Assembly (NCBI GenBank): GCA_038889075.1
Contig: JAWAHS010000002.1
Location: 140,930 to 204,929, forward strand
Direction: 5' to 3'
Origin: Ignisphaera sp.
GTDB taxonomy: Archaea > Thermoproteota > Thermoprotei_A > Sulfolobales > Ignisphaeraceae
DNA length: 64,000 bases
The position numbers and the translations under genes were made by a program. Every line of letters begins with the position of its first letter. Within the stretch, counting starts at the first letter, position 1. Below, in pieces: positions 4,731 to 14,079 of the stretch. A model generated the notes under the pieces. That model was not told where the DNA came from, did no database searches, and worked only from the letters and a program-made list of their open reading frames with translations.

Positions 4731-4757
4731 ACTAGATAGCCTCTTCCTACAATAGAT

Positions 4758-4847
4758 CCCGCCGTAGCTCAGCGGCAGAGCGCCCGGCTGTAGTGGGGCA
4801 GGGCTGTAGATACCGGGTGGTCGGGGGTTCAAGTCCCCCCGGCGGGA
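4758..4847 (+). tRNA. tRNA-Tyr(GTA) with an 18-nt intron at 37/38 (4794-4811)
   Basis: Acceptor CCCGCCG/CGGCGGG plus discriminator A, D arm GCTC/GAGC, anticodon stem CCCGG/CCGGG, GTA at 4790-4792, T arm GGGGG-TTCAAGT-CCCCC. BHB motif present (CTGT/GTAG helix, 3-nt bulges). CCA not encoded. Confidence 0.97.
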
Positions 4848-5044
4848 TTTTAAATCTCCATCGTATTTCACTCTGATCACCATGTTATTAGAAATTTGTT
4901 TAAAATCATTTCTGATCATATAACATTTCCAATTCTGAAAGAACTACCATTTCTTTGAATAATTTACTAGTAAACTATCTAAATGAAACTCAGTTATCAA
5001 GAGATTAAAATTTAGGAAGACAGATTATAATATACGAAGATTTA

Positions 5045-5101
5045 ATGATGATGGAGGTGATCTCAGACCCTCCTAGGGATGATGGAAGATCAACCATCTG
5101 A
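5045..5101 (+). ncRNA. C/D-box sRNA (candidate)
   Basis: C box ATGATGA (5045-51), 12-nt guide, D' CAGA (5064-67), CCCT-cct-AGGG hairpin, C' ATGATGG (5079-85), 12-nt guide, D box CTGA (5098-5101). Canonical archaeal spacing, intergenic. Confidence 0.75.
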
Positions 5102-5497
5102 GGTAATTAGTCGAGTATACATTAGGGTCGCATAGATGAATTGTAACGGTATTTTTCAGACCATGAAAGTGTCATCATGTATCAGCTCCTGCCAGTAACA
5201 TCATAAAAGCTTACGATCCAATACATCTACTACAATCTTGTCACTGTATTTGGATTTAAAAATTTTGTGCGACATCTCTTTCGATAAACTTACAGAGTGT
5301 TTGAATTTATCTAAGGCATATTATCAATGGTGTGAAATAGCAAATATTTAGTTATCCAATTTAATAATATAAGCTAATCAGTTAAATAATATCTCTACCT
5401 ATAGACCATGTGATATGGCATGTATAATATGTATAGGGGATGAGATGCTATCAGTATATAAGCCTCTTCTAAATAAAATATATCGTTGGTGATAGAT

Positions 5498-6109
5498 GTG
5501 GGGCTCGTTAGGAGAACAGGTCCTGGAACAAAGTTGAAGGGTAGGAAGGTTGCTATAATAGTGGCAAATGAATTTGAAGATGTGGAGCTACTCTATCCAT
5601 TTCTAAGACTTAGCGAGGAAGGGGCTGAGGTAATAATCATGCCTGTTAAAACGGGTCTCCATCCACGGCCAGCAATTTCTGAAAAGCCTGTAACTGGTAG
5701 ATTTGGTACTCCGATACCGTTGATGGTGTTTGGAGAGGGTGAAAGGTATGTTATAAAGAGTTTGGATGAAGTTAAGCCTGGGGAAATAGACGCTCTAATA
5801 ATACCAGGAGGGTTCTCACCCGATTCACTACGTATAAATGAGAAAGTTCTAAGATTTGTAAAGGACGTATATGATGCAGGCAAGATAATTGCAGCCATAT
5901 GTCATGGACCGCAGGTACTAATTTCTGCAGGTCTTGTAAAGGGTAAGAAGGTTACTAGCTATAAGGCAGTAAAAGATGATCTAATAAATGCCGGTGCCAT
6001 GTTCGTTGACGAGCCAGCTGTAAGGGATGGTAATATAATTACCGGTAGGGTTCCCGATGATCTACCTGAATTTTGTCAGCTAATAATAGAAGCACTATCT
6101 TCAAAGTAG
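5498..6109 (+). CDS. pfpI: PfpI/DJ-1 family protease/deglycase
   Basis: FEDVEL, IIPGG, nucleophile AICHGP, DGNIITGRVPDDLP. Start placed at the GTG 5 nt after GGTGA. Confidence 0.88.
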   Translation: MGLVRRTGPGTKLKGRKVAIIVANEFEDVELLYPFLRLSEEGAEVIIMPVKTGLHPRPAISEKPVTGRFGTPIPLMVFGEGERYVIKSLDEVKPGEIDALIIPGGFSPDSLRINEKVLRFVKDVYDAGKIIAAICHGPQVLISAGLVKGKKVTSYKAVKDDLINAGAMFVDEPAVRDGNIITGRVPDDLPEFCQLIIEALSSK

Positions 6110-12534: not shown

Positions 12535-14079
12535 CTAAGATACCTTAGATCCACGTAGAATTGAAATTACCATTTCTCGCAATTTTTCATAATCCTTAAT
12601 ACTGTTGACGTTCTGTGACAGTTCTTCTAATCTTGTTGCAATTTCATCTAACATGAAGAATGTTCTTATCCAGTTAGCTAAATCACCCCTACGGAGATGG
12701 TATATAATCGATTCTACTGGAACCTTCTCTAGCAATGTAATGAGTTCTGGGAGACTGCGTGCTTTTAAGCTTAGAGGTCTTCCAGGTGTTAAATAGAATT
12801 GAAATGAATAGAGAGATGGTAGGACAATATTATATGCATATTTGTATGGATTTTCAGCTATTTTACTAGATATAGCTGAGGCAAGAGCTGTTAATGCCTC
12901 AGTGTAAACTCTTAATGCAGTAAATAGGTTTTTGTATGGAGAGAAGTAGGTGTGAACCTCACCGGCAGCGCCACCTTTCATAGAGAGATAGTATAGATGA
13001 TCACTAGAGCCAAGCATTCTCCAGACCCGTAGATGATCATTGCCAACTGCTTTGGCATACGGCTCTAGGAATGTATAGAATTCGAAGATAGTTTTCTGGA
13101 TTTCGTTACCTAGCCAAGCAGATAGATCCCTCTCGTCAGCCCAACTTATTGTATTCCAAGGTGGTACATTATATACGTCTCGAATGGGGTACTTAAATGC
13201 TGCTGTAGAGGGAAATTCTGTAGCTATATTGTACTTTGCAATTTCTAGCGGAAGCCATCTTAGGAATTCGTGTATACCTGTATTGATACTATGATGTTCC
13301 CCAAATGTTTCGTAGTCTATGGCTACAAGTATTACATCGCCACTTGTTTGAGAAAGCCATTGAGCATACTTTTCGGCTGTAAGTGGATACTGATCCCATT
13401 TTTTATCTGAAAATCTAAAACCTATATCATCGCTAAGCCTATAGTTTCTGAGTAACACCCTTATATCTGAACCCCATGCTTTATATACATAATTAGGGCT
13501 TCTCCAACCTAGGACACAGTCTACACCCTCAGTTAGAATAACCCTATATCCCAGTTTATTAAGAAGGTGTGCAATATTGTTATTATATATAAATTCTGTG
13601 TTTTCCACCACAATAGGCTCGATGCCAAATATGTCACGGAGTAGACCTCTGTGCATGGCAATCTGCTCTATAAATTCATCATACTCAGGAAATAGGGATG
13701 CAAGGCTATGGTAATATGTTTGCTCAACAAGTTCTACAATACCATTAGAAACAGCTTCGGAAATCAACTCCACAACCATTCTATTCCATTTCAAAGCCTG
13801 TTCTATAAAAACACCGCTCATACTAAGTGAAAACTTAAAGTATTTGCCATATCCTTTGAGATCCTTATTTACATCAATTAAAATTTTTGTTGCCGGAATG
13901 TAGCAGTTTAGCGCCACTCTATTAAATATATTTCTATTCAAATCCTCATCAAATAAGGCAGTATACAGTAGTCTACTGTTTGACGATGATTTGAAGGAAT
14001 TCTTAATTAGATGGAATACTATGTCGTCTCTTAACCTGTAAGGCTGATGAACTTCAAACATAAATACGATATCAGTCAT
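12535..14079 (-). CDS. GH57 alpha-amylase with a C-terminal DUF5752-like domain
   Basis: FEVHQPYRL, ENTEFIYN, LSDDIGFRFS, DYETFGEH, SSDHLYY; tail SIIYHLRRGDLANWI. Confidence 0.9.
   Translation of the reverse strand: MTDIVFMFEVHQPYRLRDDIVFHLIKNSFKSSSNSRLLYTALFDEDLNRNIFNRVALNCYIPATKILIDVNKDLKGYGKYFKFSLSMSGVFIEQALKWNRMVVELISEAVSNGIVELVEQTYYHSLASLFPEYDEFIEQIAMHRGLLRDIFGIEPIVVENTEFIYNNNIAHLLNKLGYRVILTEGVDCVLGWRSPNYVYKAWGSDIRVLLRNYRLSDDIGFRFSDKKWDQYPLTAEKYAQWLSQTSGDVILVAIDYETFGEHHSINTGIHEFLRWLPLEIAKYNIATEFPSTAAFKYPIRDVYNVPPWNTISWADERDLSAWLGNEIQKTIFEFYTFLEPYAKAVGNDHLRVWRMLGSSDHLYYLSMKGGAAGEVHTYFSPYKNLFTALRVYTEALTALASAISSKIAENPYKYAYNIVLPSLYSFQFYLTPGRPLSLKARSLPELITLLEKVPVESIIYHLRRGDLANWIRTFFMLDEIATRLEELSQNVNSIKDYEKLREMVISILRGSKVS

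Follow-up and report, generated by a model that had tools for sequence, protein, structure and literature searches.

A conserved box C/D sRNA of Ignisphaera with guides antisense to both ends of 16S rRNA, a candidate guide for methylation of C1533

Introduction

Which RNA, if any, is encoded at positions 5045–5101 (+) of a contig from Ignisphaera, a heat-loving archaeon, and what would it do with complementarity to both ends of 16S rRNA? The window analyzed here is a 64,000-nt stretch of contig JAWAHS010000002.1 (assembly GCA_038889075.1, positions 140,930 to 204,929), from a host genome of 1.95 Mb in 25 contigs with 39.5% G+C. The locus is flanked by an intron-containing tRNA (4757–4848) and a 207-amino-acid ORF that starts at 5486, which lie 640 nt apart. 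An initial annotation, made from the letters of the window, described it as a box C/D sRNA with one guide for each end of 16S rRNA, and suggested that it may methylate a residue next to the anti-Shine-Dalgarno (anti-SD) sequence and/or bridge both termini as a chaperone resembling the eukaryotic U3 snoRNA.

Both suggestions touch on published work. Seistrup et al. (PMC5389701) mapped 2′-O-methyl groups at the 3′ end of 16S rRNA and, in the part of the paper that treats this site, reported Cm1533 in Ignicoccus hospitalis by RiboMeth-seq as a modification that "involves a presently unknown sRNA". According to the same text, sR13 of Nanoarchaeum equitans guides Am1534 and uses its second guide for A1408. 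For the second suggestion, the relevant section of a 2021 review (PMC8339473) states that no such U3-like RNP is known in archaea.

Results

Anatomy of the sRNA gene

The element reads AUGAUGA / 12 nt / CAGA / 11-nt spacer / AUGAUGG / 12 nt / CUGA on the + strand, as the initial annotation had laid it out. The terminal boxes, C (AUGAUGA, 5045–5051) and D (CUGA, 5098–5101), are canonical (RUGAUGA and CUGA), and the internal boxes are degenerate, each one base off the consensus: CAGA instead of CUGA for box D′ (5064–5067), and AUGAUGG, deviating at its last base, for box C′ (5079–5085). The D′ guide UGGAGGUGAUCU (5052–5063) and the D guide AAGAUCAACCAU (5086–5097) are antisense to the 16S 3′ and 5′ ends, respectively, and are separated by a variable spacer, CCCUCCUAGGG (5068–5078), with a possible 4-bp hairpin; all features lie on the + strand. 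Both the C-to-D′ and the C′-to-D spacings are 12 nt, as expected for an archaeal box C/D sRNA. Taken with the conservation described below, boxes and spacings bear out the proposed identity, and judged by these sequence features 5045–5101 (+) is a true gene of ~57 nt for an archaeal box C/D sRNA, which resembles an ordinary methylation guide in size and spacing and carries no extra domain.

The genomic setting is consistent with such a gene. A loose C/D regular expression finds 17 sites in the genome, this locus included, against 0–1 in five shuffled genomes, and genes for fibrillarin, Nop5 and L7Ae are present (PF01269, 341.5 bits; PF01798, 250.5 bits; PF01248, 100.1 bits), with those of fibrillarin and Nop5 adjacent to each other. 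At the gathering score, the tRNA is the only Rfam match in the window and none falls on the sRNA locus; here the best match, from a search that was also run at E ≤ 10, is sR47 with 15.9 bits against a threshold of 40. RF01145 (sR14) yields seven sub-threshold matches in the genome, none of them at the locus, and was rejected as the family: a single-guide relative in another genome (G031) reaches just 25.2 bits against a threshold of 38. The fold of the sRNA is no better than that of its shuffles (z = 0.06), so that intramolecular structure between the guides is not special. The two guides can indeed pair with each other, a caveat raised from the start, because the two 16S ends that they match are mutually complementary.

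In the metatranscriptome of RNA run X1, assembled contigs match the tRNA and the genes on either side with 95–99% likeness and leave 4887–5501 uncovered, which, X1 not being a small-RNA library, is no test for a 57-nt RNA and no support for one either. Raw reads of runs X2–X4, which hardly contain the organism and are likewise not small-RNA libraries, gave 0, 0 and 1 read. The upstream tRNA (4757–4848, +) scores 59.2 bits with Rfam and receives no anticodon name from ARAGORN; one X1 contig shows small gaps at 4800–4803 and divergent sequence past 4797, and may represent a relative's copy or the spliced form.

Conservation in relatives

At least 21 related genomes contain a full-length homologue. 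A BLAST search of 61 related genomes returned matches spanning both guides in 12 relatives, and a regular expression added G002 as the thirteenth. In an alignment of 14 genomes, UGAUGA of box C, GGAGGUGAUC, GAUG, AGAU-AACC and CUGA of box D are invariant, while spacer and flanks drift. The D-guide core AGAU(C/U)AACC is present in 14/14, its sole change being a C to U (G012) that keeps a G-U pair, and across homologues hardly any change affects the guide cores GGAGGUGA(U/A)C and AGAUCAACC. Within box C′, GAUG does not vary and the other positions do. The spacer ranges from 3 to 16 nt and is unconserved in sequence, yet the boxes stay in register, and the conserved unit of 54–67 nt consists of two box pairs, two guides and the spacer, with nothing else. 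This pattern of invariant boxes and guide cores against drifting spacer and flanks settles the reality of the sRNA.

A sequence-only model (R1) extended the survey to 151 genomes of the order, 61 of which matched at E ≤ 0.01; the family to which the window belongs (f1) contributes 15 of its 18 other members to these. Counting the locus itself, 18 matches span the whole model at E ≤ 2e-6, and weak full-length matches were obtained in G088, G041 and G109 (E 0.001–0.007). Nineteen homologues could be parsed with a regular expression that fixes both guides at 12 nt; G077, G010 and G011 fell outside this expression and were read by eye. Throughout the parsed set (19/19), the D′ guide forms 10–11 Watson–Crick pairs with GGAUCACCUCCU at the 16S 3′ end and the D guide forms 7–11, plus G-U pairs, with CCGGUUGAUCCU at the 5′ end; several relatives prolong the D guide to ..CCGG and thereby reach 10–11. 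Boxes and guides are hence both conserved in relatives, a check that had been proposed together with the original claim. A D′ box of the form NNGA stands at 12-nt spacing in 10 of the 19, and by eye one base later in four more; CAGA, CGGA and UAUU are among the forms that this box takes in nature. One D guide, GGGAUUAAUCGU of G028, is ambiguous, with eight Watson–Crick and three G-U pairs on the 16S 5′ end or seven contiguous Watson–Crick pairs at 16S nt ~151–157, and was not counted as support.

The 16S ends could be read in 18 relatives, and both are identical in all 12 f1 genomes among them; a search for guide–target covariation therefore meets no informative variation. Three members of a sub-clade of the same genus (G001, G010 and G011; loci L191–L193) carry a variant D′ guide, AGGAGGUGAAC(C/G), with a single A-A mismatch at position 3. 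In G001 it pairs up to both ends of the 12-mer (11/12). The C′ box of the three is strongly degenerate (GUGACUG/AUGACUG). A pattern scan of the whole collection (GGAGGTGATC, gap, AGATCAACC) was uninformative: it produced bacterial chance matches, and among the 80 matches listed none is flanked by boxes C and D. Three archaeal matches among those listed were discarded as lacking boxes, two of them having the appearance of coding sequence.

Targets on the organism's own rRNA

The 16S gene of this organism lies on another contig (G000:C19:13466-14971); it starts with AUACCGGUUGAUCCUGCCGG at the 5′ end and closes with GCGGCUGGAUCACCUCCU at the 3′ end. When both guides were compared with the organism's own 16S and 23S rRNA, the best site of each was one terminus of 16S, in agreement with the matches that had been predicted from a consensus. 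The D′ guide pairs best with 16S nt 1495–1505 (GGAUCACCUCC; 10 Watson–Crick pairs plus one G-U), and the N+5 rule points to C1499, the C of GAUC, in a G-C pair. In the E. coli numbering used in the relevant part of PMC5389701 (U1528-G-G-A-U1532, A1534-C1535), this residue is C1533. The D guide pairs best with 16S nt 6–13 (GGUUGAUC; eight contiguous Watson–Crick pairs), N+5 falling on U8 in an A-U pair; mismatches occur at positions 1, 2 and 11, the first two box-proximal. We take nt 6–13 to be the 5′ strand of helix 1 plus the stretch that is later drawn into the central pseudoknot.

In a sample of 2000 random 12-mers, runs of at least 10 occurred in 21 and runs of at least 8 in 393 (~20%). 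The D′ match is unlikely to arise by chance when taken singly, and the D match taken singly is not significant; several other sRNAs of the same genome also have best runs of 7–8. Among tRNAs no target emerged, the best run on a real tRNA being six Watson–Crick pairs. An apparent 10-nt tRNA target was rejected because the "tRNA" in question is a false ARAGORN call across a duplicated piece of the 16S 3′ end beside an N run. Here a second copy of the terminal ~90 nt of 16S (G000:C19:13240-13330) follows an N run (13330-13424) just downstream of the gene, probably a scaffolding artefact. The repeat leads ARAGORN to a 1.3-kb "tRNA-Thr", and the N run hides most of the 16S trailer.

The two ends of the organism's 16S rRNA can pair with each other at -22.6 kcal/mol, a value reached by 0 of 500 shuffles and by 27 of 1462 other 16S windows, and a long leader/trailer stem adjoins them. 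Immediately ahead of mature 16S lie 21 nt (CCCCGCGGCCUUGCGGCCGCG) that hardly vary across the genus and could fold into a hairpin; they may be a processing signal.

A convergent neighbor with a third guide for the 16S termini

A second C/D sRNA lies 54 nt away on the opposite strand (5156–5204, −), reading AUGAUGU / UACUGGCAGGAG / CUGA / UAC / AUGAUGA / CACUUUCAUGGU / CUGA. Its Rfam match to snoPyro_CD, with 29.4 bits at E 2e-4, does not reach the gathering score. The best rRNA site of its D′ guide is 16S nt 12–20, directly 3′ of the stretch targeted by the D guide of the first sRNA (nt 6–13), and that of its D guide is 23S nt 1851–1858, so that, of the four guides in the convergent pair, three are directed at the ends of 16S. 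The arrangement recurs: 13 of 19 related loci have a convergent sRNA with the D′ core GGCAG at a distance of 0–108 nt, and these GGCAG-core guides are complementary to AUCCUGCCGGA over up to 11 nt. In G018 and G021 the D boxes of the two sRNAs abut, reading CTGATCAG. Like the neighbor's counterparts in relatives, the Pyrobaculum sR19 family, Iho sR58 and Mka sR23 have the D′ core CGGCAGGA (e.g., AUUCGGCAGGAG); the guide in this genome, UACUGGCAGGAG, differs from them by a G-U pair replacing a G-C pair.

The two guides as separate modules

Outside the window's family, the guides occur apart from each other. Family f3 joins box C and the D′ guide to unrelated D guides, in 17 of 18 genomes by R1 and in at least 28 of 52 by a pattern composed of GANGANGA and the guide, and the same D′ guide with an unrelated D guide is found beyond the order in G237 and G230. 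The pattern gives lower bounds, skips the window's own copy because the base ahead of box C is an A there, and in a reversed-pattern control matched three of 325 genomes. With these queries family f13 yielded nothing (0/18 by R1, 0/47 by pattern); a single 16S was read in f13, and its 3′ end is ..CCUCAC. Conversely, a D guide complementary to CCGGUUGAUCCU in all 12 positions is present in G098, G044 and G160, joined in each of them to a D′ guide other than the present one, and a 10-nt version of it sits on the single-guide relative of G031. This modular occurrence shows that selection acts on each guide through its own target and, since each is retained with unrelated partners, that bridging is not needed to keep either. 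Going by these distributions, the union of both guides in one molecule characterizes the window's family and is no necessity.

The same two modules appear on separate RNAs in I. hospitalis, whereas here they share one. In the supplement of PMC4644070, as far as its sRNA entries go, the RNA-seq-derived Iho sR305 carries GGGAGGTGATCA (in D′-guide position) and the likewise RNA-seq-derived Iho sR155 carries GGGATCAACCGG directly before CTGA, and for both RNAs both targets are given as "NP", i.e., none predicted. The sR305 entry has unusual boxes (GAGGAGGA ... CCGA). We found its 66 nt letter for letter in G043, with variants in three more genomes of the family (4/6). These f9 sRNAs (G043, G072, G081 and G063; L216–L219) have a terminal stem CCGG...CCGG, with GAGGAGGA replacing box C and CCGA replacing box D, so that the U-U position becomes G-C; their guide GGGAGGUGAUC is invariant and the second guide variable. 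In that lineage the RNA may represent a variant of the K-turn and act as the guide for Cm1533, a link between sR305 and Cm1533 that is drawn here and that the relevant portions of PMC5389701 and PMC4644070 do not make.

Discussion

A candidate guide for Cm1533

The N+5 residue of the D′ guide is the C of GAUC, i.e., C1533, which makes the sRNA a good candidate, by complementarity, for the missing guide of Cm1533. The position at which the initial annotation predicted a methyl group is one that RiboMeth-seq found 2′-O-methylated in I. hospitalis (PMC5389701, section on the 16S 3′ end); this measurement comes from a related archaeon of another genus, and the target of the D′ guide very probably is Cm1533. 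The explanation that we consider probable as a whole is that of a C/D sRNA whose RNP methylates C1533 via the D′ guide, pairs with the 16S 5′ end via the D guide and acts on the precursor. Once transcribed, the RNA would assemble with L7Ae, Nop5 and fibrillarin. Its D′ guide would pair with the last 11 nt of 16S, the anti-SD tail, and by the N+5 rule direct 2′-O-methylation of nt 1499 in the organism's own count, and its D guide would pair with nt 6–13 (CCGGUUGAUC in relatives), where N+5 designates U8. The mutual complementarity of the 16S ends and the adjoining leader/trailer stem suggest that the RNP most likely acts on the precursor while the two ends are close together, and pairing alone may help hold the two strands apart. 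As the D′ box has the form NNGA at 12-nt spacing in just 10 of 19 homologues, D′-guided methylation may be inefficient, or shifted by one base or more in some species.

The closest precedent is sR13 of N. equitans, a box C/D sRNA with one guide for the 16S 3′ tail (nt 1531–1540) in the accounts that PMC5389701 and PMC4644070 give of it. It directs the verified Am1534 inside the anti-SD sequence, where a 2′-O-methyl group is likewise predicted here, and the authors of PMC5389701 propose in this context that sR13 times the folding of the 16S 3′ region. The Ignisphaera sRNA differs from it in its register, which is one base off (C1533), in using the D′ guide for the anti-SD tail and in its partner guide, which targets the 16S 5′ end instead of the decoding center (A1408); N. 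equitans moreover belongs to a different phylum. A guide to the anti-SD tail was thus already known (Neq sR13), and guides of the neighbor's type were already listed (Pyrobaculum sR19, Iho sR58, Mka sR23). Taken singly, each half of the sRNA is ordinary. What is new is the targeting of both 16S termini by one conserved sRNA, the three-guide cluster formed with the convergent neighbor, and the candidate assignment of a guide family to the orphan modification Cm1533. In a literature search that combined Cm1533 or C1533 with archaea and sRNA, PMC5389701, in its text on this site, was the one paper found, and as far as this search shows no such assignment is in print.

Pairing with both 16S termini and the comparison with U3

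Mutual complementarity of the 16S ends is also the basis of the idea that the RNA bridges them. One may ask whether the sRNA mainly acts by pairing, as a chaperone resembling U3 that clamps both 16S termini while its neighbor covers nt 12–20, prevents a duplex between the termini, postpones helix 1 and the central pseudoknot and controls 3′-end cleavage, with methylation incidental or absent. The invariance of the guides in homologues where the D′ box is not NNGA at 12-nt spacing (9/19) and C′ is degenerate would fit this role, as would the stability of the duplex between the organism's own 16S ends (-22.6 kcal/mol), the stem flanking both ends, the aim of three of four guides of the convergent pair and the retention of the dual arrangement across family f1. 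Dennis et al. (PMC4644070) proposed such roles for dual guides with distant targets in the part of their paper that treats them. We nevertheless hold this reading to be unlikely: each guide is kept singly with unrelated partners in other families, Cm1533 is a real methylation in I. hospitalis (PMC5389701, as excerpted above), the RNA has the size and spacing of an ordinary methylation guide without an extra domain, and modification-independent processing snoRNPs are not known in archaea according to the pertinent section of PMC8339473. Of the two roles first suggested, methylation gained from the state of C1533 in I. hospitalis, and U3-like bridging lost ground with the finding of each guide on separate sRNAs in other families; we grade an end-bridging chaperone role as possible but unsupported.

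Two published cases come near to such pairing. In Table 3 and the Fig. 5 legend of PMC4644070, the guides of a single sRNA, Neq sR15 or sR17, pair with two far-apart strands of a helix, as likewise proposed here, and a chaperone role is suggested there. Their helices (h28 and h30) belong to the mature fold, whereas here the strands are those of the two 16S termini, and a duplex between these would exist in the precursor only or as an alternative structure. The entries of that Table 3 include no pair of guides for the 5′ and 3′ ends. The eukaryotic U3 snoRNA has C/D-type core proteins and pairs with the small-subunit rRNA 5′ segment that forms the central pseudoknot (PMC8339473, passage on U3). 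The organism's own 16S 5′ segment is in like manner complementary to the D guide (nt 6–13) and to the neighbor's D′ guide (nt 12–20), a functional likeness and not a membership; the long 5′ domain with boxes A/A′ and the box B/C domain of U3 are absent from the conserved unit of 54–67 nt. U3 is several times longer, has boxes A/A′/B and a box B/C domain, forms hinge pairings with the 5′-ETS, uses dedicated proteins and is not known to methylate. It is conceivable, if on balance doubtful, that the convergent pair, with guides on 16S nt 6–13, nt 12–20 and the last 11 nt, is a working archaeal counterpart of U3, a trans-acting C/D RNP that would part the 16S termini in a stem-closed or circular precursor and time central-pseudoknot folding and 3′ cleavage by Nob1, leaving Cm1533 as a mark of its passage.

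Remaining alternatives

The weaker of the two rRNA matches raises the question whether only the D′ guide is functional and the D guide is an orphan, its 8-nt match to the 16S 5′ end being a decaying or fortuitous one in this genome. Its mismatches at positions 1, 2 and 11 and the ease with which random 12-mers reach eight contiguous pairs (~20%) speak for this reading. It appears improbable to us in view of the core AGAU(C/U)AACC in all 14 aligned homologues, the 10–11 Watson–Crick pairs in relatives and the full 12/12 complementarity of the same guide in other families, and several other sRNAs of the genome make do with best runs of 7–8. Less probable still is that the sRNP masks, or competes for, the anti-SD tail of the mature 30S subunit and so modulates initiation on mRNAs led by Shine-Dalgarno (SD) sequences. 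The guide is a perfect SD mimic (GGAGGUGAUC) and the 16S 3′ tail is single-stranded in mature subunits; direct support for such masking was not found in this analysis, and the second guide targets the 16S 5′ end, which is buried in the mature 30S, which argues for action on the precursor.

A chance motif, or an SD or leader element of a small ORF, in place of an RNA gene can be dismissed: GGAGGTGA alone does resemble an SD sequence, as the initial annotation had cautioned, and a 7-codon ATG frame opens at 5079, but no + strand ORF of at least 30 amino acids begins before 5238, 18 nt separate the SD-like stretch from the ATG, spacers in relatives range from 3 to 16 nt without any shift in the register of the boxes, and the 17 genomic C/D sites face 0–1 in shuffled genomes. 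The conservation pattern contradicts this reading.

Implications

With the methylation-guide reading as the probable one, the sRNA family provides a concrete candidate guide for Cm1533, an orphan modification in the anti-SD tail. Putative targets can also be given to two Ignicoccus sRNAs known from RNA-seq, for which the publication predicted none. The locus and its convergent neighbor would furthermore offer a testable case for whether archaeal C/D RNPs aid the processing and folding of pre-16S rRNA as U3 does in eukaryotes.
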